Position numbers and translations under genes: made by a program. From Fidelibacterota bacterium (GTDB taxonomy: Bacteria > Fidelibacterota > UBA8477 > JABMPR01), in contig JABMOT010000158.1 of assembly GCA_013202385.1 (NCBI GenBank), positions 1 to 62,151 of the forward strand: a stretch of 62,151 bases of DNA, in the 5' to 3' direction. Below the pieces are notes generated by a model. The model saw nothing but the letters and a program-made list of their open reading frames with translations. It was not told the origin of the DNA and did not search any database. This document shows, in pieces, positions 7,958 to 59,033 of the stretch (positions are counted from its first letter, which is position 1; each line of letters begins with the position of its first letter).

Positions 7958-8004
7958 TTCATAAGTAAGTTGTCGGCGGTTCAAATCCGCGACCTGCTAC
8001 ACCA
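7958..8004 (+). pseudogene. tRNA-Met-like 3' half (anticodon loop to ACCA), with no matching 5' half
   Basis: Element spacing is exactly tRNA-like. Order: loop TTCATAA (CAT at the anticodon position), 5 nt, a 5-nt variable loop, T-arm GGCGG-TTCAAAT-CCGCG, 7 nt ACCTGCT, A, then CACCA. The upstream sequence cannot pair with the acceptor 3' strand, there is no D-arm, and the anticodon stem is degenerate. Confidence 0.45.
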
Positions 8005-8008
8005 CTTA

Positions 8009-8047
8009 AGTCCTTGATAATAATGTTATCAGGGACTTTTCTGTTTA
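8009..8047 (+). terminator. Rho-independent terminator
   Basis: 12-bp stem AGTCCTTGATAA / TTATCAGGGACT (one G-U pair), 5-nt loop TAATG, then TTTTCTGTTT. It lies directly after the tRNA-like 3' end. Confidence 0.7.
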
Positions 8048-8489
8048 TCCCAGGACACCCCCCAAAAATGCATGGATGTGCTCTTCGTTAATCACCATCA
8101 TTCACCGTTGAGCTAAAATGTATCCCTTTGTCAATAAATTCGAAATGAAACTTGGTGTTGATCGATGAACATGACCGGTGCTGCCGTTGGACTTCTTGTT
8201 CTGGCCAGATGATATTTACTATAGGTAAAAATGAATAGCGCTTGATCAGCTCTCAGCATTACAGCGTTCAGAATCACAATCCATAAACCGACATACGCGC
8301 TCAATTTAGATATATTTATTTGATATAATATTAGATCAAAGTGAATAGCCCTTCGCTTTCCAATCACAAATTATTAATCCATATAAAATACTGTATATAA
8401 AACAGTTAAACAGCTATTGAAATAATTGGTATAGAGATTGAAATAGGGTGTGCCATGTTAATAACTGACTTCATCAAAGGAGAAATAAA

Positions 8490-8600
8490 ATGAGAACTCA
8501 CGATACAAAAATCAGTAGTATGTTGACAGCCCTGGCAGCAACCGGTTTGGCTGGGACACTGACCTTCAGTATTTATTTGTTATTTGCCCACACACTGTAA
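8490..8600 (+). CDS. Small hydrophobic peptide (36 aa, one predicted TM helix)
   Basis: This ORF is below the ORF-track length cutoff. ATG at 8490 follows AAAGGAG (8477-8483) with a 6-nt spacer. Product: MRTHDTKISSMLTALAATGLAGTLTFSIYLLFAHTL*. No homology is recognisable by eye. Confidence 0.35.
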   Translation: MRTHDTKISSMLTALAATGLAGTLTFSIYLLFAHTL

Positions 8601-8846
8601 GCGACTTCTTACCTTCATTAATCGATAAATCTAGCCGAGAGGTTCCGCTAGGATGGTGACCCTTTTACTTAGCAAGAGTTAAACGCCGCCTTACGTCACT
8701 ACGCATTTTACAAAACCCCTTCCAATATCCACAGATTTTCAATAGCGAATGTCTCAGAATAACATGATGTTGATCAAATAGCTTTTAAATCCATCACAAA
8801 TAATTAAGCTACGGCTAACTAATCACCCTTTTACAGGAGCTAATAA

Positions 8847-22831: not shown

Positions 22832-25800
22832 TCAAGCCAGTGTGACATCAATACGACTCACCTGACGCTGGCGAATCTCAGTGGCCAGCTTACCGATTAT
22901 GGAATTTCCCTCGAACTGATGTGTGTTCCCATCATTATCCAATATTTTCCATTGTTTTGGAATCACCTTCTCAGAACCATAGGTATTTTTCATGGCAGGA
23001 TTGTGATAGGTGACCATTATTTCACCCAGGAACATGAAGCTAAACGTATTGGCAGGGATGGATAAAGGTAAAGAATCATTTATGCCTGCCTCTTCAACAC
23101 GTTGTGTCTTTGTGGTGAATAGCCAGCCGGGGAGCACGGGCTGCAATTGGAACTCCAGTTCACTCTGATTATTTAGCACAAAGGGTTTCGGACCCATGGC
23201 CATATGCATCAAAATTTGAATGAATTCTGCTGTAGCACCACTTAAGCGCGCCACAAAGCCAGTTCCGTGCAAACTTTTATCGGGATTGGCACTACTTACA
23301 ATAAAGGAGGAGTTCTCCAGGATGCTGCGGCCGTAGATCTCTGGTTTCTGGAACGGAATAAATACCTTTTTAAATTCATCAAAGAAGATGTCGTTCAGAC
23401 CATTTCTCAGAATCTCGTACATGTATTTGTATTCCATATGGAGCCAGATGGATTCGTTCTCAAACCAACCCGGGGAAAACACCCTTGCTCGTCCAATCTC
23501 CATGGGTTCGTCATCGAGAACGGCGTTGACCTTGTACATCCCAAGCTTTGTGTCATAAAGATCGCTCTTCCGAATGTCTTCTACCAACTTACGCGCAATA
23601 GACGTCTCAGGCTGGCAACGCAGAAAATGAACTGGACCTTCCAGAAAATGGGGGAGATGATGAATCCTGAACGATTTTACCCGAAAACAGCTCAGACCCT
23701 TGGAATTGGTCTTGGTGGAGAGAGATCCATCAGCCTCAGTGACCTGAATTAGTTCATGCTCCACAACCTCATGGTTGAAATAGGTTGATGGAATCTTGCC
23801 TGCCATATCCCAGGCCATGTTGATCCCAGTTTCAAGTTTAGACAAACAGGCTTCCAAATAAGTCTTAAGCGCAGAAATGCTCACACGGGTTTCGACACCA
23901 GCAATACCCAGAATGATCTGACTCCGAAATTTTTCCTTGGCTGAATTAGCCTGATCCCAGAAGCTGAAGGGTTCAGGGTCATTCTCAAGAATTTCAGCCA
24001 GCGTTGAAATGAACTCGGCCAACTCTTCAAAAATTTCCAAATCAGCTACGCTGTGGCCATGTTCATTGATAGCCTCCAGAAGGAAAAGTATATTTCGTTT
24101 GATTTCCATGGTTTCACTGAGGCTGGAACCCATGATAGCCGATAACCCATTGAGAGCGTCATACCAGTTGGGTTTATCCGATTCCATCTCCACACCGATT
24201 CCAGAGGGGTCCAGGGAAGCCATTTTGTTGGTGATAAGACTGAGCATTTTGGTAATAAGGAAGGTATGATAGACTACTCCGCTACCATACTGAGTCCGGA
24301 CAGAATTCCGATCCTGTTGGCGCGTGTGAATCAACGCTTCTTTTTGCTTGTCAAGATAGACGGCTTCCAATTGCATGGTTTTCCCATCCCAGATGACATA
24401 CTTCTCATCCCGTGGGTGCACCAGATAGGGACTGTCGTGAAATGTGAAGTTCTGCTTCTCAAAAAGGATGTATCCAATTTTCTCGGGATAGATGGCCAGA
24501 TAATTCTCCAGCAGATCCAAATTATAGGTCCAATGATCAGACCAGTAGCCTTCACCGTGGTCAGTGTCATGGATTTTGTGACAGACGGCCAGCAGATCAC
24601 CTAAGAATGCTTCAGCACCGGTTGAAAGTTCAACACCATTCTGATGCAGGTAGACCAGGAGTTCTCCAGGAGTCCTGGATTCCTTCAAGAAATCTAGCAC
24701 GGAGTCAGCGCGATCCTGGGGCACATGGTCTTTTAAGACCTGCGAGGCGGCCGCGGAATCCTTGACTATATACCGCAGTTCTTTGATAACCAGGGGGTTG
24801 AATCCATCGAGCTGGATCAAATTGTAGAAATGTTCCAGATTACCAGATTTTACATCAGGGTTAAAAAGCAGATCAGAGCGACGATTTTGATTGACGTCCC
24901 GGTAGGCACCGTTTCCCTGGGAAAAATTGGTGGGTGTGATGCGGTAGTCATTATAATCTCGCTCGAGATCACCGTGTCTACGTGAGAATAAATGTAAAAC
25001 TGAATCGGATTTTTTGCCTTTGAGTGTATAGGGAAAACCACCGCGCAGCACATTATCCAGAAAGTTTTGGCGAACATAGAGATCCAGAACTGGTTCGCTG
25101 CTGATGATGAGATTTTTGGCAGTCAGCTCATCGATCATTGTATGACTCACCTGCTTTTTATTTTTCAGGTATTCTGCTTTGCTTATGGTCGGCATTAGCT
25201 GATTCAATGTTTCTTTTGAATCAATATGACCGATTATTGAGGTCAGTGTATAAGAATCCCCAGCAGCTAACTCGGTTTTAAAAAGACTCATGGCAGAGGG
25301 AAGTCTATTTTCAAACACTTGCCCCTCCAGTAGGGTGTCAAAATCCGACTCTAAAAAATTGGCAGGGTGACTGTAATCGTTGTGGGGACCAAAGATCCGC
25401 TGCGGGTCGACAATAGGTTGAAGCAGGCGGGTTCCTTCAGAGGTAGCCTCGAGACCGATATAGAAATTGCCCTTGATAATACGCACAACTTCAGGTCGGT
25501 CTGCAGGTTCTACTTTGCCTTTGAAAAGCGGAGCGGAGTGATCATAGTTTGTGACTTCTACAAAAGCCTCTGTCAGGCGACGAAGATGTTTCAATGCAAA
25601 ATTGTTAAGTCCGTGGGGAATGATAAGTGGGAGACCATCCAGACCTTCAAAAGCGATCTCCTGAGTACCGATGTTCTCAATGTGAAGCGTTCTAATCAGC
25701 CCTGCATATTGATCTTCGGGTACCGTATGATATTCAACCTGGAACTTAAGACCGAGGGTTTCATTCACTTCTTCAAGAGTGAGGTGGGAGGAGGATACGA

Positions 25801-26161
25801 ACATGCGCTGGGTTTTTTGCATGGCCTCATCCTGGTAATGATCCTGAAAAGGTTCATAGTACTTAATTTTAGAATCGTTAGGAAATTTGATAAAGGTCCT
25901 GAATCCCTGGCTGGAAACGAGCTGGTAAGCCCAGTTCGCCGGTAGGAATTCCATGATTGGATTGTCTTTGTCCTGGATTCCCATACTGCAAATACCCTGG
26001 CCACGGTTTACAAAAAATACCCACATGGGGATACCAGTCTTGCCGGCAATTCCTGGGAAAAAGCTGGAAAAGGGCTTTGCCGCATTATAATTCTCAATGA
26101 TGAACTCACCTGAATTATTCAATTCAAAACTGGTTTTGGATCTGCTATTCAAAGGTTTCAC
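22832..26161 (-). CDS. Large cytoplasmic GH94-clan-like protein, candidate beta-1,3-glucan (laminari-oligosaccharide) phosphorylase (GH149/GH161-type)
   Basis: 1109 aa with no signal peptide. Its size and N-terminus (FSSFFPGIAGKTGIPMWVFFVNRGQGICSMG) resemble what I recall of bacterial proteins annotated as cellobiose-phosphorylase-like or beta-1,3-glucan phosphorylase. It sits between GH30 and GH17. The family assignment was not verified by any search. Confidence 0.45.
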   Translation of the reverse strand: MKPLNSRSKTSFELNNSGEFIIENYNAAKPFSSFFPGIAGKTGIPMWVFFVNRGQGICSMGIQDKDNPIMEFLPANWAYQLVSSQGFRTFIKFPNDSKIKYYEPFQDHYQDEAMQKTQRMFVSSSHLTLEEVNETLGLKFQVEYHTVPEDQYAGLIRTLHIENIGTQEIAFEGLDGLPLIIPHGLNNFALKHLRRLTEAFVEVTNYDHSAPLFKGKVEPADRPEVVRIIKGNFYIGLEATSEGTRLLQPIVDPQRIFGPHNDYSHPANFLESDFDTLLEGQVFENRLPSAMSLFKTELAAGDSYTLTSIIGHIDSKETLNQLMPTISKAEYLKNKKQVSHTMIDELTAKNLIISSEPVLDLYVRQNFLDNVLRGGFPYTLKGKKSDSVLHLFSRRHGDLERDYNDYRITPTNFSQGNGAYRDVNQNRRSDLLFNPDVKSGNLEHFYNLIQLDGFNPLVIKELRYIVKDSAAASQVLKDHVPQDRADSVLDFLKESRTPGELLVYLHQNGVELSTGAEAFLGDLLAVCHKIHDTDHGEGYWSDHWTYNLDLLENYLAIYPEKIGYILFEKQNFTFHDSPYLVHPRDEKYVIWDGKTMQLEAVYLDKQKEALIHTRQQDRNSVRTQYGSGVVYHTFLITKMLSLITNKMASLDPSGIGVEMESDKPNWYDALNGLSAIMGSSLSETMEIKRNILFLLEAINEHGHSVADLEIFEELAEFISTLAEILENDPEPFSFWDQANSAKEKFRSQIILGIAGVETRVSISALKTYLEACLSKLETGINMAWDMAGKIPSTYFNHEVVEHELIQVTEADGSLSTKTNSKGLSCFRVKSFRIHHLPHFLEGPVHFLRCQPETSIARKLVEDIRKSDLYDTKLGMYKVNAVLDDEPMEIGRARVFSPGWFENESIWLHMEYKYMYEILRNGLNDIFFDEFKKVFIPFQKPEIYGRSILENSSFIVSSANPDKSLHGTGFVARLSGATAEFIQILMHMAMGPKPFVLNNQSELEFQLQPVLPGWLFTTKTQRVEEAGINDSLPLSIPANTFSFMFLGEIMVTYHNPAMKNTYGSEKVIPKQWKILDNDGNTHQFEGNSIIGKLATEIRQRQVSRIDVTLA

Positions 26162-38094: not shown

Positions 38095-39702
38095 GTGAGC
38101 GGTCTGGATTACTCAGTTATCGTAATCTATTTCCTCATTGTGCTGGGGATCGGAATCTATTTTTCCCGGCGCACGTCAGACAGTACTGAGTATTTCCTGG
38201 CTGGCCGCAATGTTGGTTGGATAGCGATTGGTGCTTCATTGTTCGCTTCCAACATTTCTAGCGAACATTTCATCGATCTTGCGGGAACAGGCTCCAGTAG
38301 TGGCTTGGCTGTAGGACATTTTGAATGGCTTGCCGCTTTCATGGTTTTATTTCTGGGCTGGATTTTTGTACCCTTCTATTTGAAATCTGGTGTTTTCACC
38401 ATGCCAGAATTTCTAGAACGGCGTTATGGTCGCGCCAGCCGCATGTATTTGACCTCAGTATCAATCATTGCCTATGTCATTACAAAAATTTCGGTCACTT
38501 TATTTGCAGGTGGACTGCTCCTGAACAAGATTTTGGGCTGGGATATGATGACTTCCGCCGTTGTACTCATCATCGTTACCGGTATTTACACAATTGCCGG
38601 TGGTCTTAGTGCAGTCATCTATACAGAATTGGTGCAGACCTTTATCCTTATAGGGGGTGCAGTGGCATTGACCCTCCTTGGTTTGAATGAAGTAGGTGGT
38701 TTTTCAGGCTTACAGGCCAAACTGCCACCAGAATTCTTTGATATGTTTAAAGCCATGGATCATCCGGATTTCCCCTGGACTGGAATCATATTTGGGGCAC
38801 CCATATTGGGTGTCTGGTACTGGTGTACGGATCAGTTTATCGTTCAACGGGTGTTGAGTGCAAAAAATATTAATCATGCTCGCTCAGGGGCCATCCTTGC
38901 AGGTTTCCTGAAGATATTACCCGTATTCATACTGGTATTGCCCGGTTTGATTGCCGCCGCATTATTTGGAACAACGGGGGATGAGGCCTACCCAACCCTG
39001 GTGACCAGTTATTTACTCCCTTCAGGTGTTAAGGGCATTGTGATTGCCAGTTTGCTAGCTGCGCTCATGTCATCATTGGCCAGTGTATTCAATAGTACTT
39101 CAACATTATTTACGATAGATTTTTATAAAAATTTCCGACCAGATTCAACTGAAGTTGAACTGGTTCTCGTCGGTCGCCTTGCAACGACAGTCATGGTGGT
39201 ATTGGGTGTGCTTTCTGTTCCGTTGATCACCATGCTCAGCAGTCAGCTGTTTGTCTATCTACAAAGTGTCCAGGCCTACATTAGTCCTCCCATTGCAGCA
39301 GTATTCATCTTGGGAATATTCTGGGACAGGGCCAATTCTCAGGGCGCCATTTCAGCATTGGGTGCAGGGGCAGTCCTGGGAGCATTACGGTTTGTTTTGG
39401 AGATCTTGGTCAAGAGCGGCACATCACTAGGTAGCTTTGAATGGTTTGCCACCATGAATTTTCTCCATTTTGCAGTGTTTTTATTCATAATTTCAGTTGG
39501 GGTCGTGGTGGTCGTCAGTTTGGCAACTTCAGTGCCCGATCGCAGGCAAATTTCTGGACTTACCCTGGCCACAGCATCGGAGTTGCAGACAGATTTAAGT
39601 AGAAGGATGGATGTTCAGGATTCAAAATGGAATCAGATCAACATTCTAGCATCTATTGTGCTGGTTGTGGCAATACTGGCACTCTGGATTCGATTCGCAT
39701 GA
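38095..39702 (+). CDS. Sodium:solute symporter (SSF, SGLT-like sugar transporter)
   Basis: 535 aa with a GTG start. Motif YFLAGRNVGWIAIGASLFASNISSEHFIDLAG. About 14 TM segments. Confidence 0.85.
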   Translation: MSGLDYSVIVIYFLIVLGIGIYFSRRTSDSTEYFLAGRNVGWIAIGASLFASNISSEHFIDLAGTGSSSGLAVGHFEWLAAFMVLFLGWIFVPFYLKSGVFTMPEFLERRYGRASRMYLTSVSIIAYVITKISVTLFAGGLLLNKILGWDMMTSAVVLIIVTGIYTIAGGLSAVIYTELVQTFILIGGAVALTLLGLNEVGGFSGLQAKLPPEFFDMFKAMDHPDFPWTGIIFGAPILGVWYWCTDQFIVQRVLSAKNINHARSGAILAGFLKILPVFILVLPGLIAAALFGTTGDEAYPTLVTSYLLPSGVKGIVIASLLAALMSSLASVFNSTSTLFTIDFYKNFRPDSTEVELVLVGRLATTVMVVLGVLSVPLITMLSSQLFVYLQSVQAYISPPIAAVFILGIFWDRANSQGAISALGAGAVLGALRFVLEILVKSGTSLGSFEWFATMNFLHFAVFLFIISVGVVVVVSLATSVPDRRQISGLTLATASELQTDLSRRMDVQDSKWNQINILASIVLVVAILALWIRFA

Positions 39703-39767
39703 ATCAAATAAAAAATTATCAAGGAGGATTGATGATGATTAACATAACCAAAGAAGGAGGGAGCATA

Positions 39768-42700
39768 ATGCTACCTAAACGTTACTTAATTAACCTAACA
39801 GTTACCCTGTTGGTTTTGCTGCCTGTGCTTTTGACCGCACAGCTGGCAGAAACATGGAAACTTGCTCCTGAGGCAGGTGCCTTGGTTGTTGGACCAAACC
39901 CAACTGATGTTTGGTGGGCAAACTCTGCCGGCGATGTTGAAACGCGAGCATGCTTGTGGGATGATGAGTATGTTTTTGGTGCAGATGGGACTTTTCATAA
40001 TGTCCAGCAAGACGAAACCTGGCTTGAAGGCTGGCAAACTGCTACGGAAGGCTGTGGAACTCCCGTTGCTCCTCACAATGACTCAAATGCCGCAACATGG
40101 GTCATTGATGAAGAAGCGGGTACGCTCACAGTGCTTGGAACGGGTGCCTATCTGGGTATTCCCAAGCCATTCAATGGTGGTGAGCTTTCAGACCCGGCTA
40201 ACGCCCCTGCTTCAATCACCTATGAAATAACGCTTTCAGAAGATGACAATGTGATGACCTTAGGCTTAGACATTAGCACAGGGTATTGGACTTTTAAGCT
40301 GGTATCACCTGACTGGGAACCGTATGTACCTAGTGGTCCTTTAGCGGCAGCTCCAACACCCACTGAACTTGAAGCTGATGTAATTTCAGTTTACAGTGAT
40401 GCCTATACAGATATTCTTGGCACCAACTTTAACCCCAATTGGGGACAGGCTACGGCTTATTCTGAAGTAATGATTGAAGACAACGCCACAATATTGTATG
40501 CTGGATTGAATTATCAGGGAATCGATTTAGGTAGCCATCAGGATGTTTCTGGAAAGGGCTACCTGCATATTGATTACTGGACCGCAAATTCTACGGCGCT
40601 AAACGTATTTTTGATAAGTCCAGGAACTCCCAATGTTGAAACTGCCTATGAATTACCAGTTAGTTTCGAAACCTGGATGAGCGTAGATATTCGTTTGAAT
40701 GACTTTGCACCTGTTGATTTGGCTGATATTTTTCAGTTCAAATTCGACGGCAATGGTGATATTTATTTAGACAATATCTATTTCCATGGAGTACCATGGG
40801 TACAACCTGATGATCTCGTCCTGAACGGTTTTGAGACCGCAGAAGAAATTGGCATTGGCGATGAGGCCTTCTGGCAATTTGATTATCCCGTTGAGTCCGA
40901 GGGTATCGACTTCATCACTTCCACACTTGTTAACAGTGCTGGATTACCTCAGGATGGTGTGGGTGCTGGTCAGTTTAACTATGCCGTTGAACACTACTAT
41001 CAATATGGTGGTTTTGCCTCTGTAAATCATATTGCAGATGATTATCTGGATATGTCTGGTCTCAACTATATCAGCTTTCAGATTCAGAACTACATTCCAA
41101 CCAATATTGATTCTTCAATGGCCCTACGCTTTACGCTCGCTGAGGCAAGTGAACAACCTGATCCAACCAAGTGGAGCAAGGACAGTTGCGAATTCTATTA
41201 CTCTTTCATCGAGGATGATTACTTCCTGGATGATGAAGCTGGCTCAGGCTGGTCAGAGATCAGGATTCCACTTATAAAATCAAGTTCCAATACAGGTGGA
41301 CAAGAGTATAATAATGGTTTTGTTCACACGGGTTGGGCTGGCATTACTGGTAATGATCAACTGGATCTGGATAAGATTGTTGGTTTTGGTTTTGAGTGGG
41401 TTTCCCCACCGTGGAACACAGTAATTGGTGATGTCATTACTGGAGCTGTCTGGTTTGACAATCTAAAAGCAATTTATTCCAATGATATATACGGTTGTAT
41501 GGATCCCTCAAGTCTCAACTATAATCCAGATGCCACTATCGACGACGAGAGCTGTCTCTATGACACGGATGTTGTGGATGTCACATTTGAATTGAATATG
41601 AGTATGCAGACCGTTAATGAAGAGGGAGTGCATATTGCAGGAGGAAATTATTTTGGTCCTCCTATCCCACGCTTCAAATTCAATGATGATGGAATCGCCG
41701 GTGATCGGATCGCCGGTGATGATATCTATACCATTGTCGTACAGTTGCTTAACAATTTCAACGAAAACTATACCTTCTCCAATGGCGCAGACCAGGATTT
41801 TCAGGACAAAGAAAATATTGCAGGTCAGTCCTGTGCAGATGGCCAATATAATGATCGTCGGCTTACAGTTGGTATAAATGATACAACTATTACCACTTGT
41901 TTCGCTGAATGTTCAGATGATGGCTCTTGCACTAATGTAGATATGGTCGATGTTACTTTCAGAGTCGATATGCGCGATCAGATCGTGAATGTTGCCGGTG
42001 TTTTTATGGCTGGTGGTGGTCTCGGTGATGATGGATATGTAATGGATGATTCTGACGGCGATGATGTATGGGAATTAGATATGAGCATCCCAGCAGGCAT
42101 TGAATTCTTCTGGAAGTTTAGAAATGGACCCACTCTCGGTGGCTGGCAAGGTGACTGGGAAGGTGGAGATAATGGTATCCAGTTAGGAGATGGTGGCTGT
42201 GGCGCGAATCAGTACAATGATCGCTCCGTGACCCTGGATGTTGATACAGTCCTTCCAGCATATTGTTTTGGTTACTGCTATGCATGTTCACCAGTGCATG
42301 ATGTCGTAGTCACATTCAGTGTGGACATGAGTGCTGAATCAGCCTTCAACCCTGCCACGGATGCACCTTATGTGATTAGCTCAATAGATGAGTGGAGTTT
42401 CGATAATATTGTGCTCTTTACTCAATCTGCTCTCAGTGGCGTCTGGGATGGAACTCTCACTTTATCTTCACGTGATACCGTAAACTATCTGTTTGTGTAT
42501 GGTGCTGGAACTTATGAAGATATGACGGGGGATGCATGCGCCGTTTATGATGATGTAGCCACCCTTGACGTACGTCAACTCATCATGCCCGTCGATGAAA
42601 CCACAGAATTCGAACCTGGAATACAGATATTTGGATCCTGTGCTTATGTTGGGGTTGATGATAAGAATCTCGCACTACCTACAGAGTTTCTGGTAAGTAC

Positions 42701-42956
42701 ATTTCCCAATCCCTTCAACCCGGATGTAACCGTCCAGTATCAGCTTCCTGCAGTTGAGGATATCAAAATCGATGTCTACAATATGTTGGGTCAGAGTGTC
42801 AAATCTCTGGTTAATAGACGACATGCTGGTGGACATTATAGTGTTGTCTGGAATGGTCGAAACGAAAATGGACAAGCAGTCGGAACGGGAATCTACTTTG
42901 TTGTGGTTACCCGTGCCTCTGGTACATCAGTATCAAAAGTGACGTTGCTTAAGTAA
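39768..42956 (+). CDS. Large multi-module T9SS cargo, putative surface glycan-binding protein
   Basis: The ORF-track start (39627) overlaps the SSF gene. ATG 39768 has a GAAGGAGGG RBS and gives the signal peptide MLPKRYLINLTVTLLVLLPVLLTAQ (alternative ATG at 39732). Contents: a WKLAPEAGALVVGP...RACLWDDEY module; one copy of module B shared with 19214-21541; a Cys-bounded CMDPSSLNYNPDATIDDESC motif; three VDVTF/VVVTF beta-sandwich-like repeats. CTD: FPNPFNPDVTVQYQL...GIYFVVV...KVTLLK. Confidence 0.7.
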   Translation: MLPKRYLINLTVTLLVLLPVLLTAQLAETWKLAPEAGALVVGPNPTDVWWANSAGDVETRACLWDDEYVFGADGTFHNVQQDETWLEGWQTATEGCGTPVAPHNDSNAATWVIDEEAGTLTVLGTGAYLGIPKPFNGGELSDPANAPASITYEITLSEDDNVMTLGLDISTGYWTFKLVSPDWEPYVPSGPLAAAPTPTELEADVISVYSDAYTDILGTNFNPNWGQATAYSEVMIEDNATILYAGLNYQGIDLGSHQDVSGKGYLHIDYWTANSTALNVFLISPGTPNVETAYELPVSFETWMSVDIRLNDFAPVDLADIFQFKFDGNGDIYLDNIYFHGVPWVQPDDLVLNGFETAEEIGIGDEAFWQFDYPVESEGIDFITSTLVNSAGLPQDGVGAGQFNYAVEHYYQYGGFASVNHIADDYLDMSGLNYISFQIQNYIPTNIDSSMALRFTLAEASEQPDPTKWSKDSCEFYYSFIEDDYFLDDEAGSGWSEIRIPLIKSSSNTGGQEYNNGFVHTGWAGITGNDQLDLDKIVGFGFEWVSPPWNTVIGDVITGAVWFDNLKAIYSNDIYGCMDPSSLNYNPDATIDDESCLYDTDVVDVTFELNMSMQTVNEEGVHIAGGNYFGPPIPRFKFNDDGIAGDRIAGDDIYTIVVQLLNNFNENYTFSNGADQDFQDKENIAGQSCADGQYNDRRLTVGINDTTITTCFAECSDDGSCTNVDMVDVTFRVDMRDQIVNVAGVFMAGGGLGDDGYVMDDSDGDDVWELDMSIPAGIEFFWKFRNGPTLGGWQGDWEGGDNGIQLGDGGCGANQYNDRSVTLDVDTVLPAYCFGYCYACSPVHDVVVTFSVDMSAESAFNPATDAPYVISSIDEWSFDNIVLFTQSALSGVWDGTLTLSSRDTVNYLFVYGAGTYEDMTGDACAVYDDVATLDVRQLIMPVDETTEFEPGIQIFGSCAYVGVDDKNLALPTEFLVSTFPNPFNPDVTVQYQLPAVEDIKIDVYNMLGQSVKSLVNRRHAGGHYSVVWNGRNENGQAVGTGIYFVVVTRASGTSVSKVTLLK

Positions 42957-45980: not shown

Positions 45981-48900
45981 ATGAATACAATAAACAAACT
46001 CCGATTAGCTATCATATTCAGCTTTGTCCTTGGCTTGCCATTGGTTTTAAGCAGCCAGGGGAGACCTTATGATGGACCCATTGATGTCGCTGGCGATTTT
46101 GACGCCGAACGTGAAGGAACGATGAATGGAAATCGCATTCATCTTGAGTTTACAAACAATACCGAATTATCCAATTGGCCTGATGAAGCCGCATCCAAGT
46201 GGCCCAATAATAATTCCGGATACAAAATGCTTGATGGTATTGGATTGCTGGTAGGAGCCAGGGTCTACATTGAAAACGATTTGGATGATACTACAGTGGA
46301 CTCGATTGTGGTCACAGATCCAAATATCATTGCATCAGATCCTGATCTCCATATCCTGCATTTTTTGCAAACCAGTTACCGCGAACATATGGATCGAAGC
46401 GATACCAGTAGTACGGAGTGGGGTTTTTATCCGGTATGGGGATATTTTAACGAATTGAGTGAACACCCTGCCATGAGTAATGATACGCTGACATGGCCAG
46501 TTGAAGGTTGGCCAAAAGGGGGATATGCCAGGGAATGGCCGCTGGAATGGGATGGACGATTCGGTCGAGGTATCCAATATGCTGATCTAGAGACTTACTT
46601 TGTGGTTAATGATGCCCAGGACCAGGAATATCTTGGCGACGATGATATGGTAAAATACTACCCCAGACCCGGGAAAATCATAGGCCAAGAAGGACACGAC
46701 ATTACAATTCAAAACGGAGCTCCCTGGGGAGGTTTAGGGCTCCGGGTCGAGACCCGTGGATTCCAATGGAATAATCCCCAAGTACGGGACGCGCTTTTCT
46801 GGGAATACAATATCACCAATAATTCAGTTTATGATCTTCCTGAAGTCTGTTTTGGATATTGGGTAGACAACGCCATTGGTGGCGAAGGTCCCGATGATGA
46901 CATTGGGTTTTATAACGCTGAGTTGGATCTCGCGTATTCGTGGGATAAGGATGAGTCAGCCTCAGACGGCGGCACTCCTGGAATTATGGGGTTTGCATAT
47001 CTGGAGAGCCCTGGACTTGCCTATGACAATATGGATAACGATGATGATGGTCTGATTGATGAGAAACGAGACAATCAAGCTACTGTTCTCCTCCCTGGAG
47101 CCACCGATGGGATTTATGATCTGGAGAAATTTTTAAATTTTTACGGTTTAAAAGAGTCCGAATTGAAAGCCCATTGGGATGCTGATGAAGATCAAGATTG
47201 GCAAGATGGTGATGATTTAAACGGTGATGGATTCTACCAGGCTTCTGAACCCTATGGTGATGATGTGGGTCTGGATGGATTGGGACCCCTGGATTTGAAT
47301 TATCCCGGGCGCGATCAGGGCGAGTGCAACCACATGCCCGATTATGATGAGGCTCTGGGCTGCGAACCAAATTTTGCTGAGACCGATGTGAGTGAGTCGG
47401 ACATGCTGGGATTAACATCTTTTCAGCTCTTTACAATCGTAGGCGTACCAGATGGTCCAGCACCTCCTGGAACAAAGTGGTTTAGCAACGACGAAATTAT
47501 GTGGGATATGGTTGCAGCAGATACACTTGTCAAATTGTACGACGTAAATGCCAACCTGGTGGAATTATTTGCCTCTGGTCCATTTCCCTTATTCGCAGGG
47601 AGAACCGAAAGAATATCCATGGCTGAGCTTCACTCAACCGATGAGAATATGGCAACACCAGATTATGTAGCTCCCGCCTTGTACGAGTTAAAATCCGTGG
47701 TTCAGTTGATTTATGAATCAGATTATCGTTTCGCACAACCACCCCTGATGCCCACCCTTGAAGCCACTGCTCTAGATGGAAAAGTGATTTTAACCTGGGA
47801 TGATCGCTCGGACAAACTTACCCGTGATCCATTCATCGGCAACGTGAACGATTTTGAAGGTTACAAACTCTATAAGTCAACGGACAAATTCTTTGAAGAT
47901 TCCGAAATAATAACCGATGGCTATGGTTTACCAACATTCAAAGACCCTATCTTTGAGTGCGATTTAGTGGACTCTGTATTCGGTTTTGCTGGATTCGGCT
48001 TGGTGAATGGTATTGCCTTTAACCTTGGAACAGAAACCGGGCTTAAACATTATTTTATTGATGATAAGGTGGAGAATGGCAGAACATACTATTATGGTTT
48101 AACTGCCTATGATTATGGGATCAGCACCAGTACTCCTGGTATTGCGCCGTCTGAAAACAATCTGGTGGTAAGTATCAACGAATACGACGAGATTTTAGGC
48201 GTCGGCAAGAATGTTCAGATTGTAACCCCCAGAAGTACGGCGGCTGGCTTTCATGATCCGGTTGTATTACTTGATTCCCTCCAAAAACCCACACTCGGCA
48301 GTGGCTCCATTTCACCCACTATCTTTGCCAGGGATCAGGTTAAAGATGGGCATAGCTATGAAGTCAGCTTCCTAATAGATACACTTAAGACTAAAATAGG
48401 TAACATCTTTTACCCAAGCAATTATATAACAAAGGGCTATCAGGTTATGGATGTTACTGGTGCAGAACCCCTCATGGTCCATAGTGAATCTTACCTCGAC
48501 TCCCTGGGCAACCCTAATTATATAGATGATAATATTGTCTATGATGAAGACTTGCGAGTATGGGTCCTCAACTCAGATACCTTGCTCTATACCGATATTT
48601 TTGATGGTATCCAGCTTCAAATTGATCAGAATGTGACCCTTCCTGAATTAGATATGGGACCATTTGCCACTGGCTGGATAAATGGCTCGCCTATCAACCA
48701 TATGTTAGTTTCGCTCACAAGGCGTGAAACCAATCTATTTCCATTTGATTATGAAATTGTTTTCACTGGCGACTCGTTGGCATATACCAGTCAGGTGGGA
48801 TCCAACACCGGTATCCGGGGTGAGAACGACAACGGGCTATGGTTTCCACCAAAAATTATTCTGAACCAGTCTTTTGACTTCTATGTGCTCAATACGAGTC

Positions 48901-49526
48901 TGCTCGATTCTAATGGTAATCACCCAGTAATGGATCTGGTGGTCCAGGATCATTTTGGTCCAACTTGGGGTCTTGATGGTAATTTTAACAAATTTCAGGA
49001 CAAAATCCTTGTGGGCAGCATCGATAGCTCCGCCAAATGGTTGGGTACGGCCTTTGTAATCGATTTTATCGGGGGTGGAGAGTTTGACTATCCTGGAGTT
49101 GGTGATAGATATCAACTTAGCTTTAAAAGGCAATTCTGGAGTTCAGACACCATCCGGTTTACCACAAGTTCCGTCCCTGAGCTCGATCTCGTTCGTGAGG
49201 CTCAAACCATGGACAGTATCAAGGTGGTTCCAAATCCATATGTTGGTACGAACGCCATGGAACAGGCCTTGAGGAACCGTCTCTTGAACCAGCCACGCAA
49301 GTTAATGTTCACCCATCTTCCAGCGAGCTGTACAATCAGAATATTCACATCCTCAGGGGTTTTGATAAAAACCATTGACGTAGCTAACGCGGCGGCCAAT
49401 GGGTCTATGCATTGGAACCTGCTTACTGAGGAAAATTTAGAGATTGCGGCGGGTATGTACATCTACCATGTCGAGTCCATGGAATCTGGCAGAGAACATA
49501 TTGGAAAATTTGCGGTGTTGAAATGA
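45981..49526 (+). CDS. 1181-aa secreted protein of unknown function with acidic Ca-binding-like repeats, an FN3-like segment and a variant CTD-like C-terminus
   Basis: It starts 1 nt after the receptor stop codon and has a signal peptide. Acidic stretches: DNMDNDDDGLIDEKRDN and DADEDQDWQDGDDLNGDGFY...GDDVGLDGLG. FN3-like: LDGKVILTWDDRSDK...FEGYKLYKS...GRTYYYGLTAYDYG. C-terminus: VVPNPYVG...CTIRIFTSSGVLIKTI...GMYIYHVES...GKFAVLK. Confidence 0.6.
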   Translation: MNTINKLRLAIIFSFVLGLPLVLSSQGRPYDGPIDVAGDFDAEREGTMNGNRIHLEFTNNTELSNWPDEAASKWPNNNSGYKMLDGIGLLVGARVYIENDLDDTTVDSIVVTDPNIIASDPDLHILHFLQTSYREHMDRSDTSSTEWGFYPVWGYFNELSEHPAMSNDTLTWPVEGWPKGGYAREWPLEWDGRFGRGIQYADLETYFVVNDAQDQEYLGDDDMVKYYPRPGKIIGQEGHDITIQNGAPWGGLGLRVETRGFQWNNPQVRDALFWEYNITNNSVYDLPEVCFGYWVDNAIGGEGPDDDIGFYNAELDLAYSWDKDESASDGGTPGIMGFAYLESPGLAYDNMDNDDDGLIDEKRDNQATVLLPGATDGIYDLEKFLNFYGLKESELKAHWDADEDQDWQDGDDLNGDGFYQASEPYGDDVGLDGLGPLDLNYPGRDQGECNHMPDYDEALGCEPNFAETDVSESDMLGLTSFQLFTIVGVPDGPAPPGTKWFSNDEIMWDMVAADTLVKLYDVNANLVELFASGPFPLFAGRTERISMAELHSTDENMATPDYVAPALYELKSVVQLIYESDYRFAQPPLMPTLEATALDGKVILTWDDRSDKLTRDPFIGNVNDFEGYKLYKSTDKFFEDSEIITDGYGLPTFKDPIFECDLVDSVFGFAGFGLVNGIAFNLGTETGLKHYFIDDKVENGRTYYYGLTAYDYGISTSTPGIAPSENNLVVSINEYDEILGVGKNVQIVTPRSTAAGFHDPVVLLDSLQKPTLGSGSISPTIFARDQVKDGHSYEVSFLIDTLKTKIGNIFYPSNYITKGYQVMDVTGAEPLMVHSESYLDSLGNPNYIDDNIVYDEDLRVWVLNSDTLLYTDIFDGIQLQIDQNVTLPELDMGPFATGWINGSPINHMLVSLTRRETNLFPFDYEIVFTGDSLAYTSQVGSNTGIRGENDNGLWFPPKIILNQSFDFYVLNTSLLDSNGNHPVMDLVVQDHFGPTWGLDGNFNKFQDKILVGSIDSSAKWLGTAFVIDFIGGGEFDYPGVGDRYQLSFKRQFWSSDTIRFTTSSVPELDLVREAQTMDSIKVVPNPYVGTNAMEQALRNRLLNQPRKLMFTHLPASCTIRIFTSSGVLIKTIDVANAAANGSMHWNLLTEENLEIAAGMYIYHVESMESGREHIGKFAVLK

Positions 49527-50641: not shown

Positions 50642-52159
50642 ATGGATAAGCTAAATATCAATGGAATTGTATTTGTCATTGTTTCCTCTTTTCTGTTTCT
50701 GATTTCCTGCGAAAGAAAAGAGCCGGATCGGTACCCTGACTCAGTTGTTCTGGCCCGCGTGGGTGACCGCGTGATAACAAAATCTGAATTTGTTCGTCGT
50801 GCAGAATACACACCCAGACCAGCTTATTGTCGGGGGGATAATAATATTCATAAAAAGATCGTTCTCAATTCTCTCATCGCCGAAAAACTTTTAGCACTTG
50901 ATGTCCTCTCAAAACCTCAATACAAAGCACCCGCTAAACTGGAAGATTACATCCAGGGGAGACGGGAGCAGGCCATGCGCCAATCGTACAGGTACGAGTA
51001 TGGGATGAAGCGGGTTGAAACCTCGGATGAAGAATTGAAGTATAGTTTCAAGATAGCCAGCCGTGAATACAAATTGGGATTCATCACGCTGCCTGATTCC
51101 CATTATGCATATGCTACAAAGCAATTTCTGGATGATGGAGCAAGCTTTGAGAGTATCTATTCCAGGATTTTTGGAACTCAGGAGCTTGAAATCAAAAAGG
51201 TGTCCTGGTTTGATGACGATGATCCGAAAATTAGAGAGGCACTCTACAGTCAGTCGCTGAAAAAAGATACCGTTGTAGGACCCCTTGAACTTAGCGATGG
51301 AAAGTTTCTCATTTTTAAAGTGGTTGGCTGGCAAGATAATTTGCACCTCAGCGAATCGGCCAAGGGGACATTTTGGGATGATGTCATTTCAAAAGTCAAG
51401 CAGCGCAAAGCCAACCTGCTGTATAACGAGCATGTGGCCAATCTCATGCGTGGTAAAAGTTTTTTATTAGAAGAGGCGGCTTTTCGGCCATTGGTGGAGA
51501 ACCTGTCTGAGCAGTATCTCATGAAAGAGTCTGAAAAAGGGTCCATGTTAAATGAGACTATCTGGGAGTTGGAAAAACAACATTTGAGCCCTGACAACTC
51601 TGACGCTGGCGCTTTACATATGGATCAGGTACTATTTCGATTTGACGGTAAGGACTGGTTGATAAAAGACTTTTATGATTTGCTCTCAAGACACCCCCTT
51701 GTTTTTCGAAAAAAACGCTTCGAAATGTCAGAATTTGCAGAACAGCTAAAGTTCTCTATTGCAGATTTACTCAAGGACTATATTGTCACAGGCGAAGCGT
51801 ATAAAGAGGGTTTTGGTGATCGTAAAGAAACTATAAGCTATGGTCAAATGTGGCAGGATCAGTATTTATCAGGAATTTACAAGGAGCTATTCAATTACTC
51901 ACTGGCTGACAGCATCACTCAATCTCCGAATTCAATTTACTTTATCGAAGCCTATATGAATCCGATTATCGATAGTCTGCAGGTGAAATACTCTGATGTT
52001 ATTTCCATCAATTTCGACCTGTATGATGATATAAAGCTCACACACATTGATATGTTTGTTGCCGAGGAGAATGTTCCCTATCCAGTGGTAGTCCCGCCAT
52101 TTCCCCAGATAACAACCGATCATGTATTTGACTATGGGAGCAAGCTTGTACTCAAATAA
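50642..52159 (+). CDS. SurA/PpiD-like lipoprotein (putative periplasmic chaperone with a degenerate parvulin-like segment)
   Basis: 505 aa. Lipobox FLISC. The N-terminus LARVGDRVITKSEFVRR resembles the SurA N-domain. VVGPLELSDGKFLIFKVVG resembles the end of a parvulin fold. The assignment is weak. Confidence 0.35.
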   Translation: MDKLNINGIVFVIVSSFLFLISCERKEPDRYPDSVVLARVGDRVITKSEFVRRAEYTPRPAYCRGDNNIHKKIVLNSLIAEKLLALDVLSKPQYKAPAKLEDYIQGRREQAMRQSYRYEYGMKRVETSDEELKYSFKIASREYKLGFITLPDSHYAYATKQFLDDGASFESIYSRIFGTQELEIKKVSWFDDDDPKIREALYSQSLKKDTVVGPLELSDGKFLIFKVVGWQDNLHLSESAKGTFWDDVISKVKQRKANLLYNEHVANLMRGKSFLLEEAAFRPLVENLSEQYLMKESEKGSMLNETIWELEKQHLSPDNSDAGALHMDQVLFRFDGKDWLIKDFYDLLSRHPLVFRKKRFEMSEFAEQLKFSIADLLKDYIVTGEAYKEGFGDRKETISYGQMWQDQYLSGIYKELFNYSLADSITQSPNSIYFIEAYMNPIIDSLQVKYSDVISINFDLYDDIKLTHIDMFVAEENVPYPVVVPPFPQITTDHVFDYGSKLVLK

Positions 52160-56514: not shown

Positions 56515-57561
56515 ATGAATGTAAGGCACACCAAAACGACAGCATATATGGGGATGGCTGCAGTGCTCTTGCTAATCCTGTTGTTTATTCCATTTTCCCA
56601 ACACGATACACTCAAAGCTGTCGTACTACCTGCGCTGGAATTCCAAATTCTCTCAATTGGAAGCGGAACCTACGCTACGGTGCTTACAGACAACTGGAGC
56701 AATCAAACGTTGACAACGCGGAGTTTCGTCCCGGATAGAGGCGGACTCATTCATTATGAAGCCAGACGTCTGCGTGGCGGAGGATTGGTCACCGTCGGGG
56801 ATACCCTTGCGGCGTTGTATTCGTCTACTGTCATGGACAAAATTGCTACACTTGAAGGGAATATCACCACTCTCCGAGCTTCTCTTGACTATGAACGTTC
56901 CGGTGCCAGAGATACTGAGATTGAAGCAGCCCGCCTGGGATTGGAATATGCCAAAACCAGACATGCAGAACAGCTGAAGGTCCTGGAAAGATCAAAAATT
57001 CTTCTGGAAAGAAACGTGATAACCCTGGCGGAATATGAAATTGATGAACGTCGTGAGCGGCTGGATGCCATCCGCGTCTCCATTGCCGAGGCCGATCTAG
57101 GTTCAGCTCTAACCGGAGCCCAATCCAGTAGGCTGGAGATCTTTCGATCCCAGATAGCAGATGAGGTTCGGAAATTAAATATCACCAAACAAGTTTTGGC
57201 AGAAATGACCCTAACAAGTCCCATTTCGGGACATCTCTTTTTTCCGCTGGATACAGATTCATTGCTCATGGTTGGTAACACAGATTCCATGGTGGTTATG
57301 CTCCCCATTCAAAAAGGATCCCAGGGCAGGGTAGATTGGGGTTCAAACCTCATTTTGAATGGCATCGATTTCCAAATCGAAGTACAGCCCCAACATATAT
57401 CACTTGAGAATCAGATCCTGAGATCGGGAAACAATCAGCTGGTACTGGCAAGAATATTGGTTGACAATTCAGCTCAGAAATTACGCCCGGGTCAGTTGCT
57501 CGAGACCACCATGCGTTATGAATCCAGAAGCGTTTTTCAAATTTTGAAGGATTTATTTTAG
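56515..57561 (+). CDS. HlyD-family membrane-fusion / periplasmic adaptor-like protein
   Basis: 348 aa. N-terminal TM AAVLLLILLFIPF. Long coiled-coil segment (LRASLDYERSGARDTEIEAARLGLEYAKTRHAEQLKVLERSKILLERNVITLAEYEIDERR). Beta-barrel-like C-terminus. No cognate ABC or RND pump gene is adjacent. Confidence 0.55.
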   Translation: MNVRHTKTTAYMGMAAVLLLILLFIPFSQHDTLKAVVLPALEFQILSIGSGTYATVLTDNWSNQTLTTRSFVPDRGGLIHYEARRLRGGGLVTVGDTLAALYSSTVMDKIATLEGNITTLRASLDYERSGARDTEIEAARLGLEYAKTRHAEQLKVLERSKILLERNVITLAEYEIDERRERLDAIRVSIAEADLGSALTGAQSSRLEIFRSQIADEVRKLNITKQVLAEMTLTSPISGHLFFPLDTDSLLMVGNTDSMVVMLPIQKGSQGRVDWGSNLILNGIDFQIEVQPQHISLENQILRSGNNQLVLARILVDNSAQKLRPGQLLETTMRYESRSVFQILKDLF

Positions 57562-57570
57562 GTCAGCATC

Positions 57571-58338
57571 ATGGCAGGCCGACGCGAAGATAAATACCTC
57601 ATCCCCATGTATTTCATGGATGCTATTCGTGAAGCAGTCGCTCCTTATGTCATCGCTGATAATCACAGAGCCTTGTTACACTCAAACGTATATGAGATTA
57701 GATCGATCTATTTTGATTCCTTTGATCTCAAGGACTACTACGAAAAACATGCCGGTCTGCAAATGCGCAAAAAGCTGCGGATGCGCGGGTATAATGAGTT
57801 GCAGGGTGATGCTGACGTGTTTCTGGAGATAAAATGGAAGAACAACATGTTTATCTCCAAGGATCGGACACCGGTCAAATTTAAGGATGTTGCCACGGTT
57901 TTGTTTGGAGGCGATCTGGATGTCTATTTTCCATATCGGAAAGATTTTCCAAATTCTCGGGAAAAAGCCAGCAAATTTCTGTTTTATTTGAAGCGCAGCT
58001 CAAGGGTCCCCATGAATCTGGTGACCTATACCAGAGAAGCTTTTATCGGGAAATTCAATCATCAGGACAGAATAACTTTTGACTCAAACATCCGATCCAT
58101 GATGTACCCCGGCCTGGATGATCTTTATGAAGAAAACAGGCTGAAGACTTTTCTGGATCGGGAATTTGTTCTGGAATACAAATCTGAAAACGCCGTCCCT
58201 GAGTGGTTCAAAAATATCATCAGAAAATTCAATTTGAGTAAACAGGCTTACTCAAAATATGTGAGAGGTATTGATGCGCACTATCGCCATATGGGTGATT
58301 GCAGCAAACATGAAATCATCTCCATGAGTCATTTTTAG
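57571..58338 (+). CDS. VTC-domain (polyphosphate-polymerase-like, triphosphate tunnel fold) protein
   Basis: 255 aa. N-terminal RREDKYLIP (E-x-K), IRSIYFDSFDL, FLEIKWK, RITFDSNIR. These resemble what I recall of bacterial VTC-domain proteins. Confidence 0.6.
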   Translation: MAGRREDKYLIPMYFMDAIREAVAPYVIADNHRALLHSNVYEIRSIYFDSFDLKDYYEKHAGLQMRKKLRMRGYNELQGDADVFLEIKWKNNMFISKDRTPVKFKDVATVLFGGDLDVYFPYRKDFPNSREKASKFLFYLKRSSRVPMNLVTYTREAFIGKFNHQDRITFDSNIRSMMYPGLDDLYEENRLKTFLDREFVLEYKSENAVPEWFKNIIRKFNLSKQAYSKYVRGIDAHYRHMGDCSKHEIISMSHF

Positions 58339-58349
58339 AAAGAATACAA

Positions 58350-59033
58350 ATGCAATTACAAGATTTACAATCACTCATGGACACGAACATCGCTACCAGG
58401 GATGTCTTATTCAGCCTGCTCGTCGCATTTCTATGTGGCTGGTTTATCGCTCAAACCTATAAGATTACTTTCGGTGGAGCCTCGTATTCAAAAAGTATTG
58501 CCAATGCTTTGGTCGTGCTTTCCATGATTACAGCTGTGGTTATCACTGTTATCGGGAATAACCTGGCCCGCGCTTTTGGACTGGTTGGAGCCATGTCCAT
58601 TATTCGTTTTCGAACTGCTGTTAAAGACCCCATGGATATCGTGTTCATTTTCTTCTCACTCTCCATTGGACTGGCTGCTGGTGTAGGATTAGCTCAAATT
58701 GCAATTATTGGAACGCTAAGCATCAGTGGGGTACTGCTGGTGATGAGCAAGCTGGGATATGGATCTACCCGATCCCAGGAAAATTTACTCCAGTTTGCTT
58801 ATGCGGGTGACCATAATGGGGGAGAACCCCCTTATCTTGAACTTGTTAAGTCCTATTGCAGAACATATTCCATGATCAATGTCCGTTCCCTGGGGAGCAG
58901 TAAGCAGTATGAGATATCCTATTATGTGACTTTGAGGGACGCAAATAAAGCAAATGAATTTGTTAAGGCTTTGGCAAGTATCAAGGATGTTGAAAATATT
59001 AATCTGTACTCGGATGAATCACTAACTCAATAA
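58350..59033 (+). CDS. DUF4956-family integral membrane protein
   Basis: 227 aa. Several TM segments and the conserved-looking AFGLVGAMSIIRFRTAVKDPMDIVFIFFSLSIGLAAGVG. It lies 11 nt downstream of the VTC gene. Confidence 0.55.
   Translation: MQLQDLQSLMDTNIATRDVLFSLLVAFLCGWFIAQTYKITFGGASYSKSIANALVVLSMITAVVITVIGNNLARAFGLVGAMSIIRFRTAVKDPMDIVFIFFSLSIGLAAGVGLAQIAIIGTLSISGVLLVMSKLGYGSTRSQENLLQFAYAGDHNGGEPPYLELVKSYCRTYSMINVRSLGSSKQYEISYYVTLRDANKANEFVKALASIKDVENINLYSDESLTQ

Follow-up and report, generated by a model that had tools for sequence, protein, structure and literature searches.

We analysed a 62,151-nucleotide stretch of DNA from a Fidelibacterota bacterium (the window; positions 1-62151 of contig JABMOT010000158.1, assembly GCA_013202385.1). 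Toward its 3' end, three + strand open reading frames (ORFs) encode a periplasmic adaptor (56515-57561, 348 aa), a VTC-domain tunnel protein (57571-58338, 255 aa), and a DUF4956 membrane protein (58350-59033, 227 aa). The genes are separated by gaps of 9 nt (adaptor/VTC) and 11 nt (VTC/DUF4956), the spacing given in an earlier sequence-only reading of this DNA, and they are one operon-like unit. Together they make up a prokaryotic version of the VTC polyphosphate machinery that is as yet uncharacterised and is joined to efflux-pump architecture. Our favoured explanation, held tentatively and at a little less than an even chance, is that it couples polyphosphate synthesis to export, with the product serving extracellular kinases of the CotH family. 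The module offers a possible answer to how extracellular kinases get a phosphate donor and to whether bacteria deliberately export polyphosphate.

The second gene product (57571-58338, + strand) is a Vtc4-like triphosphate-tunnel enzyme and a putative polyphosphate polymerase. Pfam places it in the family VTC (PF09359), with a full-length match of 131 bits (E=5.7e-38; cut-off 23), and gave no CYTH match for it. A profile of 21 homologues matched the Vtc4 structures 3g3q and 8i6v at E ~5e-19; the profile was needed, as a single-sequence search of the PDB returned only a marginal match to Vtc2. Hydropathy predicts a soluble protein with no transmembrane segment. It consists of the tunnel domain only, and neither an SPX domain nor a Vtc1-type (DUF202) transmembrane domain was found in it. 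A search of 1.84 billion representatives gave 15,392 matches to the VTC profile at E<=1e-3, and the 8,829 cluster representatives at E<=1e-10 include eukaryotic VTC proteins.

The catalytic residues of Vtc4 are retained. The N terminus of the window protein reads M-A-G-R-R-E-D-K-Y, and alignment to Vtc4 places the beta-1 motif R4-R-E6-D-K8 at 57580-57594 (+ strand). This contains the E-x-K (REDKY) signature noticed in the sequence-only reading, and E6-x-K8 is at least 90% conserved in the 21 homologues. Residue equivalences were read from the profile alignment, in full-length Vtc4 numbering: K8 corresponds to Vtc4 K200, R70 to R264, R72 to R266, K88 to K281, K97 to K294, Y153 to Y359, R155 to R361, R167 to R373, E202 to E426, K204 to K428, S228 to S457, and K229 to K458. 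All twelve mapped tunnel residues are identical in the window protein and invariant in the 21 homologues, so the check for lost catalytic residues proposed in that reading found none lost. The catalytic domain family and these twelve residues are common to the eukaryotic VTC complex (3g3q, 7ytj, 8i6v). Both enzymes have a genetic link to a membrane protein, suggesting that synthesis is coupled to translocation. Unlike the eukaryotic proteins, the bacterial one has neither SPX nor Vtc1-type DUF202, and the role of membrane partner falls to a separate protein, the MgtC-like DUF4956. The bacterial family also has the extra invariant residues E6, R66, and K68 compared with Vtc4.

The first gene (56515-57561, + strand) encodes a dedicated protein with the periplasmic adaptor (membrane fusion protein) fold. 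Even with the limit relaxed to E<5, Pfam gave no match to it. It matches the NCBIfam HlyD and RND_mfp models weakly (1.5e-7 at 31 bits, cut-off 393; 3e-4 at 20 bits, cut-off 95), falling below the threshold of every Pfam and NCBIfam adaptor model. Its AlphaFold2 model (predicted local distance difference test [pLDDT] score of 82) comprises a membrane helix, a beta domain, a long alpha-hairpin (~104-230) made of two ~60-residue helical arms (104-165 and 171-230), and a C-terminal beta-barrel. Foldseek matched this model to MacA (3fpp, 5nik, 9qgy), EmrA (4tko, 8zal), AcrA, MexA, and ZneB at E values of 1e-11 to 1e-8, with a probability of 1.00 over ~340 columns, nearly its full length. Judged by this model, the protein is a genuine periplasmic adaptor at the fold level, and the label of HlyD-like adaptor first given to it is right at that level through the matches to MacA, EmrA, AcrA, and MexA. 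The N-terminal membrane anchor is predicted at about residues 5-24 (56527-56586, + strand), the extent of the model helix, with a hydropathy peak of 2.26 at residues 9-27. An anchor segment is found in 59 of 60 family members, and basic residues before it suggest an N-in, C-out topology.

At the predicted hairpin turn (residues 166-170 of the model), family alignment identified the tip motif R159-x3-L163-x6-T170 (56989-57024, + strand). The pattern RxxxLxxxxxxS/T is the TolC-binding hairpin tip of MacA, AcrA, MexA, and HlyD (PMC3391258). The 61 VTC-linked adaptors share ~24% identity and have just 21 positions conserved at 80% or more. These include R159, kept in 56/61 (92%), and L163, kept in 55/61 (90%). 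Position 170 is serine in 40/61 (66%) and threonine in the window protein, which has the HlyD-type RLT form where the family consensus is RLS. The hairpin tip carries the motif by which periplasmic adaptors bind the outer-membrane factor (TolC).

The third gene product (58350-59033, + strand) is the candidate membrane partner or conduit. It matched Pfam DUF4956 at E=1.4e-11. Hydropathy gives four strong transmembrane segments, and the AlphaFold2 model (pLDDT 73) has five helices (16-41, 48-68, 70-87, 94-111, and 115-134), bearing out the description of a polytopic protein. These are followed by a C-terminal beta-alpha-beta-beta-alpha-beta (ACT/ferredoxin-like) domain at residues 145-221 (58782-59012, + strand), which Foldseek matched to ACT domains (2ko1, 3ibw, IlvN) at E ~1e-2. 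The loop charge distribution fits a cytoplasmic C-terminal domain under the five-transmembrane model, and we predict from that model that the ACT-like domain is cytoplasmic. Across phyla, a 20-residue helix stretch, G69-NNLARAFGLVGAMSIIRF-R88 (58554-58613, + strand), is near-invariant in an alignment of 33 sequences. It carries R74, R86, and R88, with K92 following. This Arg-rich helix is a candidate anion-contacting element; no other part of the monomer was modelled with lower confidence.

Pfam MgtC is a weak additional match for all 33 aligned DUF4956 members (best 6.9e-5), and none of them matches DUF202 (Vtc1-type). The likeness of the transmembrane region to MgtC/SapB/YhiD proteins is weak but consistent, and the plan is the same: about five transmembrane helices plus a C-terminal ACT-like domain. 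What sets DUF4956 apart from MgtC is its separate Pfam family, the near-invariant Arg-rich helix, and the obligatory pairing with VTC. The family has more than 3,400 homologues, and DUF4956 is the most conserved of the three proteins, with a median identity to the window protein of 46%, where VTC has 38% and the adaptor 24%.

Conservation of the module was assessed with one genome per GTDB species. The scan found 576 relatives, from which the best 80 of 576 loci were kept, a set biased to the clade of the query. These species loci were annotated with hidden Markov models (HMMs) built for this analysis. DUF4956 lies directly 3' of VTC in 75/78 evaluable loci, and the adaptor subfamily lies directly 5' of VTC in 58/73. 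Statistical linkage among these families, a check proposed in the sequence-only reading, was thus found both for the VTC-DUF4956 pair and for CotH, which lies within 600 bp in 38/80 species. In an unbiased all-against-all clustering of ORFs from the 80 loci, only four families recurred, namely VTC (76 loci), DUF4956 (71), the adaptor (60), and CotH (42); the next family was present in 7 loci. A Pfam census of the 95 immediately flanking proteins found no family more than four times (PelG 2, PPK2 1, outer-membrane efflux protein 1). The flanks are heterogeneous while the triad is kept, which argues that the module is autonomous and that its glycoside hydrolase context is specific to Marinimicrobia.

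The claim that the adaptor is an orphan did not survive this comparison: it is a dedicated, conserved third component of the module. The observation behind that claim was true, as no pump gene stands beside the adaptor in the window, where the flanks are a GH5/CBM6 gene upstream and GH2 plus a partial sodium:solute symporter (SSF) gene downstream. The adaptor resembles those of MacA, EmrA, AcrA, and HlyD type in having a membrane anchor, beta domains, a long alpha-hairpin, and the tip motif. It differs from pump adaptors in its neighbours, which are an MgtC-like protein and a soluble tunnel enzyme rather than an ATP-binding cassette (ABC), resistance-nodulation-division, or major facilitator superfamily (MFS) transporter.

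Two relatives do encode a pump nearby. About 700 bp 3' of the triad, loci L001 (12156-16588) and L003 (12145-16545) carry genes for a MacA-like adaptor, an ABC ATPase, and a MacB/FtsX permease; in the window, the place of this MacAB-type pump is taken by the GH2 gene and the SSF symporter gene. We rejected this pump as the partner of the triad adaptor since it comes with an adaptor of its own, does not occur in the window, and lacks conservation.

The presence of the adaptor follows the type of cell envelope. We compared evaluable loci with a usable taxon label. Among double-membraned lineages, the adaptor is present in 28/30 loci of Bacteroidota, 10/11 of Ignavibacteriota, 4/4 of Marinimicrobia type, 2/2 of Calditrichota, 2/2 of KSB1, and 4/4 single loci of Acidobacteriota, Chlorobiota, Chlorobi type, and Balneolaceae, for a total of 50/53. 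Among single-membrane lineages, it is present in 0/4 loci of Firmicutes, 0/3 of Chloroflexota, and 0/2 of Asgard archaea, for a total of 0/9 (Fisher p=1e-8, uncorrected for phylogeny). Restriction to diderm loci is the pattern expected of a part needed just for crossing the periplasm and outer membrane.

A fourth family, CotH, is linked to the module across species. A CotH-domain gene occurs anywhere in the locus in 41/80 species loci and lies 600 bp or less from the module edge in 38/80, often with overlapping stop and start codons. This zone is the nearest 8.6% of the flank and holds 38 of the 54 CotH genes (binomial p=1.5e-28). Of the CotH proteins with a complete N terminus, 50/54 have a strongly hydrophobic export-type segment before the kinase domain, and an exported kinase implies that a phosphate donor is needed outside the cell.

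The window itself encodes two CotH proteins, as the sequence-only reading had counted and as Pfam supports. The first (9957-12146, + strand; 729 aa; CotH E=1e-57) has a signal peptide and a C-terminal FlgD_ig/type IX secretion system (T9SS)-type tail. The second (15642-19202, - strand; 1186 aa) has a signal sequence, LTD, Fn3_assoc, and CHB_HEX_C domains, and a Por_Secre_tail T9SS domain. A single-sequence PDB search with CotH gave no match, and a profile matched Bacillus cereus CotH (5jd9). Aligned with 5jd9, the first kinase retains the catalytic-loop Asp and the WD Asp; the second retains its catalytic Asp residues, with W changed to Y in the WD motif. The two genes lie 46 kb and 37 kb from the module, and neither is adjacent to it. 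The statement in the sequence-only reading that VTC and DUF4956 genes often neighbour CotH genes therefore stands for other species, both in our count and in the literature (PMC7112168, PMC2879425, PMC12345266), but not for the arrangement in this window.

The association of CotH, VTC, and DUF4956 is already published for Gram-positive pel loci. Genes for CotH, a "poly-phosphate polymerase," and DUF4956 were described as accessory genes of Gram-positive pel operons (Whitfield 2020, PMC7112168), and the same set occurs in NELoc-2 of Clostridium perfringens (PMC2879425). In Streptococcus intermedius (SIR_1594-1592), deletions of the DUF4956 and CotH genes altered Pel levels and aggregation (PMC12345266). 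That study did not find the three-gene synteny outside pel loci; contrary to this, we found many non-pel instances. The pel loci and NELoc-2 share the VTC-DUF4956 pair and its CotH link with the module described here, but their hosts are monoderm, they are without an adaptor, and they stand beside pel or chitin-synthase-like genes. The window, by comparison, has a dedicated adaptor, a CotH that is not adjacent, and a glycan-degrading context, with glycoside hydrolases rather than pel genes beside the triad. Five things go beyond these papers: the adaptor, the way it tracks envelope type, the occurrence outside pel loci, a GT2::VTC fusion, and the Asgard copies.

This fusion (P0303, 718 aa) joins a multi-transmembrane glycosyltransferase of the GT2 processive-synthase type to a C-terminal VTC domain, which puts VTC on the cytoplasmic side of a membrane enzyme that translocates a polymer. 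Its operon (DUF2334 [deacetylase-like], GT2::VTC, DUF4956, CotH-LTD) is present on two independent metagenome contigs (L092, 1265-8560; L093, 607-5916). The module shares with synthase-dependent secretion (Pel, cellulose, poly-N-acetylglucosamine) the concept of an inner-membrane polymerase threading its product outwards, and it is repeatedly linked to exopolysaccharide synthases through the fusion and the PelG flanks. It would differ from those systems in that the polymer would be inorganic polyphosphate and the periplasmic part is an efflux-type adaptor, not a tetratricopeptide repeat/porin scaffold.

In the mechanism we propose, soluble VTC would build polyphosphate on the inner side of the cytoplasmic membrane by polymerising the gamma-phosphate of ATP or another nucleoside triphosphate (NTP). 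DUF4956, with its five transmembrane helices and cytoplasmic ACT-like domain, would supply the membrane path for the chain, a role analogous, not homologous, to that of the transmembrane channel of eukaryotic Vtc1/2/3/4. In diderms, the inner-membrane-anchored adaptor would carry the path across the periplasm and, via its RLS/RLT tip, dock onto a TolC-like outer-membrane channel encoded elsewhere. We infer that the exported product is most likely a polyphosphate chain, which secreted CotH kinases would use or act alongside. CotH would be a fourth, facultatively linked component, represented in this glycan-utilisation island by two CotH proteins secreted through the T9SS. The proposed destination is thus the cell exterior and not the vacuole as for eukaryotic VTC, with the periplasmic adaptor and CotH added.

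A more ambitious form of this proposal seems to us rather doubtful. It would make the module a new class of trans-envelope secretion machine with the polymerase as its motor, running from VTC through a DUF4956 channel and the adaptor to a TolC-like pore and feeding CotH kinases or an anionic matrix; the Asgard copies may then mark the prokaryotic root of eukaryotic VTC. If polyphosphate export by this module is true, prokaryotes have a second, PPK-independent polyphosphate pathway, DUF4956 has a function that sheds light on the MgtC superfamily, and the tripartite-pump architecture extends to a polymerase-driven system. It would also bear on phosphorus cycling by ocean bacteria and, via the Pel and GT2 links, on the biofilm matrix.

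Several points weigh against export of polyphosphate by the module. CotH is not adjacent in the window or in the other four Marinimicrobia-type loci, the loci of these relatives having been examined over +/-10 kb, and to our knowledge the CotH enzymes characterised so far are ATP users. In the 80 species loci, no conserved pump or outer-membrane factor was found near the module, the one outer-membrane efflux protein among 95 flanking genes aside. Foldseek returned ACT-like matches only for the DUF4956 model; the transmembrane part has no solved relative that would show a pore. MgtC, which DUF4956 resembles, is a regulator, not a channel, and has no known transport role. The correlation of the adaptor with envelope type is confounded by shared ancestry. 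At E6, the tunnel brings back one hydrolase-type ExExK glutamate that Vtc4 is without. Loss of the VTC gene left aggregation of S. intermedius unchanged, and the authors of that study suggest that the polyphosphate is possibly cytoplasmic (PMC12345266). Finally, the literature searched held no functional or biochemical study of any bacterial VTC-domain protein.

The alternative that survives best, although we consider it unlikely, follows those authors. Polyphosphate would stay cytoplasmic, DUF4956 would anchor or regulate VTC in phosphate and energy homeostasis, the adaptor would only stabilise or regulate the membrane protein, and CotH would be co-regulated. The S. intermedius authors favour a cytoplasmic location given that no Vtc1-type channel is present, and their work cites that MgtC proteins regulate ATP synthase and phosphate metabolism (PMC12345266). 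The MgtC-likeness of every aligned DUF4956 member points in the same direction, and the ACT-like domain suggests ligand sensing. However, a cytoplasmic product leaves unexplained why an adaptor with a conserved TolC-binding tip stands beside the pair in 58/73 loci, why this adaptor is missing exactly where the outer membrane is absent, and why export of the partner CotH kinase is near-universal. Cytoplasmic polyphosphate in most bacteria, moreover, already comes from PPK1/PPK2.

It is less probable again that the tunnel enzyme is not a polymerase but a tri-/polyphosphate hydrolase or other NTP processor. The ACT domain of DUF4956 would then sense its substrate or product, and the module would send a signal or supply energy to a surface process such as CotH action or exopolysaccharide handling. 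Most triphosphate-tunnel enzymes are hydrolases or cyclases, and AtTTM3 makes no polyphosphate even though its tunnel-centre residues are common with Vtc4 (PMC4641920). Hydrolase-type tunnel enzymes have a four-glutamate acidic patch where Vtc4 is instead basic (Martinez et al. 2015, PMC4641920). Three of the patch positions could be mapped, with AtTTM3 E90 unmapped: R4 and K204 match Vtc4 in being basic, and E6 is acidic, retained at the second-Glu position of the triphosphate tunnel metalloenzyme ExExK motif, where Vtc4 has T198. The active site is thus polymerase-like with one hydrolase-like feature. A non-polymerase does not sit well with a patch that has its glutamate at one of the three mapped positions, with the invariance of the polymerase-specific lysine K458 (K229) and the basic exit residues, or with the Pfam assignment to VTC and not to CYTH.

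The surroundings of the triad suggest a third alternative, that it is an accessory of the local beta-glucan locus, in oligosaccharide uptake or efflux, and unrelated to polyphosphate or CotH. The whole 62-kb window (1-62151) is a Marinimicrobia glycan-utilisation island, and the glycan it targets is probably beta-glucan. It encodes enzymes of families GH2, GH3, GH5, GH16, GH17, and GH30, many with T9SS sorting tails, as well as a TonB-dependent receptor, a PorV-like gene, ABC, MFS, and SSF sugar transporters, and a sigma-54 two-component pair. Immediately 5' of the triad are two GH16 genes and the GH5/CBM6 gene, with type IX secretion tails; 3' of it are the GH2 gene and then the SSF gene, which runs past the end of the window. 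In the window and four Marinimicrobia-type loci, this arrangement is conserved in order, with GH16/GH5 upstream and GH2 or a transporter/pump downstream. Outside such loci, however, the flanks are unrelated while the triad is still conserved, and sugar transport would have no use for a soluble enzyme of the Vtc4 type. We regard this account as very improbable.

Chance juxtaposition, with the adaptor belonging to a pump encoded elsewhere, might be suggested by the lack of a Pfam assignment and of an adjacent classical transporter, but its probability is negligible: the same adaptor subfamily stands directly 5' of VTC in several phyla and scores at least 100 with the subfamily HMM, against 24-39 for other adaptor-like proteins (e.g., the MacA-type protein of L001). 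An anti-phage defence role was also dropped, as no defence-system model in PADLOC was matched by any of the three triad proteins.

The module was found in marine Marinimicrobia, Bacteroidota, gut and oral Firmicutes, pathogenicity loci of C. perfringens, and Asgard archaea. The nearest homologues are in Candidatus Marinimicrobia and Fibrobacteres-Chlorobi-Bacteroidetes (FCB)-group genomes assembled from metagenomes, and in separate neighbourhood look-ups the Marinimicrobia loci had the same gene order as the window. A locus with 44% VTC identity reads CotH-LTD, a small phospholipase D (PLD)-like gene, adaptor, VTC, DUF4956. In Firmicute-type loci, genes for a response regulator and a histidine kinase precede VTC, DUF4956, and CotH. 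One of these (L007, 10001-18688; also L008 and L009) carries tandem modules, with response regulator-histidine kinase-VTC-DUF4956-CotH followed by CotH-VTC-DUF4956.

Other loci have additional features. Between CotH and the adaptor, L004 (8143-8879) and L005 (1836-2521) have a small ORF (81 aa and 64 aa, respectively) and a 157-aa PLDc_2 gene; this phosphodiesterase-type (PLD-like) enzyme may be relevant to phosphate chemistry. L013, L059, and L063 are labelled Lentisphaeria, Heliobacteriaceae, and Heliomicrobium, yet they carry Marinimicrobia-type or FCB-type modules. In L013, VTC is 79% identical and the glycoside hydrolase context is as in the window. The taxonomic labels of these three loci look doubtful. 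In Asgard archaea, L079 (7212-11442, on the Promethearchaeum syntrophicum MK-D1 chromosome) and L084 have contiguous CotH-VTC-DUF4956 without an adaptor, and these copies may be informative about how the eukaryotic VTC polyphosphate system arose.

There is weak evidence that the triad is expressed. Short metatranscriptome contigs of 90-99% identical strains cover all three genes, from a library that may contain DNA; none of these contigs crosses a triad gene junction, so they give no evidence for co-transcription. A promoter/terminator scan of 52-62 kb gave counts at the level of shuffled sequence, with a consensus ill-suited to FCB-group bacteria, so these counts say nothing about the operon.

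Across the window, Rfam and tRNA scans gave no match. This includes the interval 7337-8846, ~1.5 kb between ABC permease and aldo/keto reductase genes that has no ORF of at least 80 aa and holds short two-copy repeats only. Three proteins of 1109, 1181, and 505 aa (22832-26161, - strand; 45981-49526, + strand; 50642-52159, + strand) have no significant Pfam match. The ORFs of the latter two sit among the TonB-dependent receptor, PorV-like, and GH16 genes, in an order kept in the Marinimicrobia loci L001 and L003. They may encode surface glycan-binding or chaperone components. Lastly, the SSF symporter ORF at 38095-39702 overlaps a 1109-aa T9SS-tailed ORF at 39627-42956 by 76 nt, and the true start of the latter is probably further downstream.

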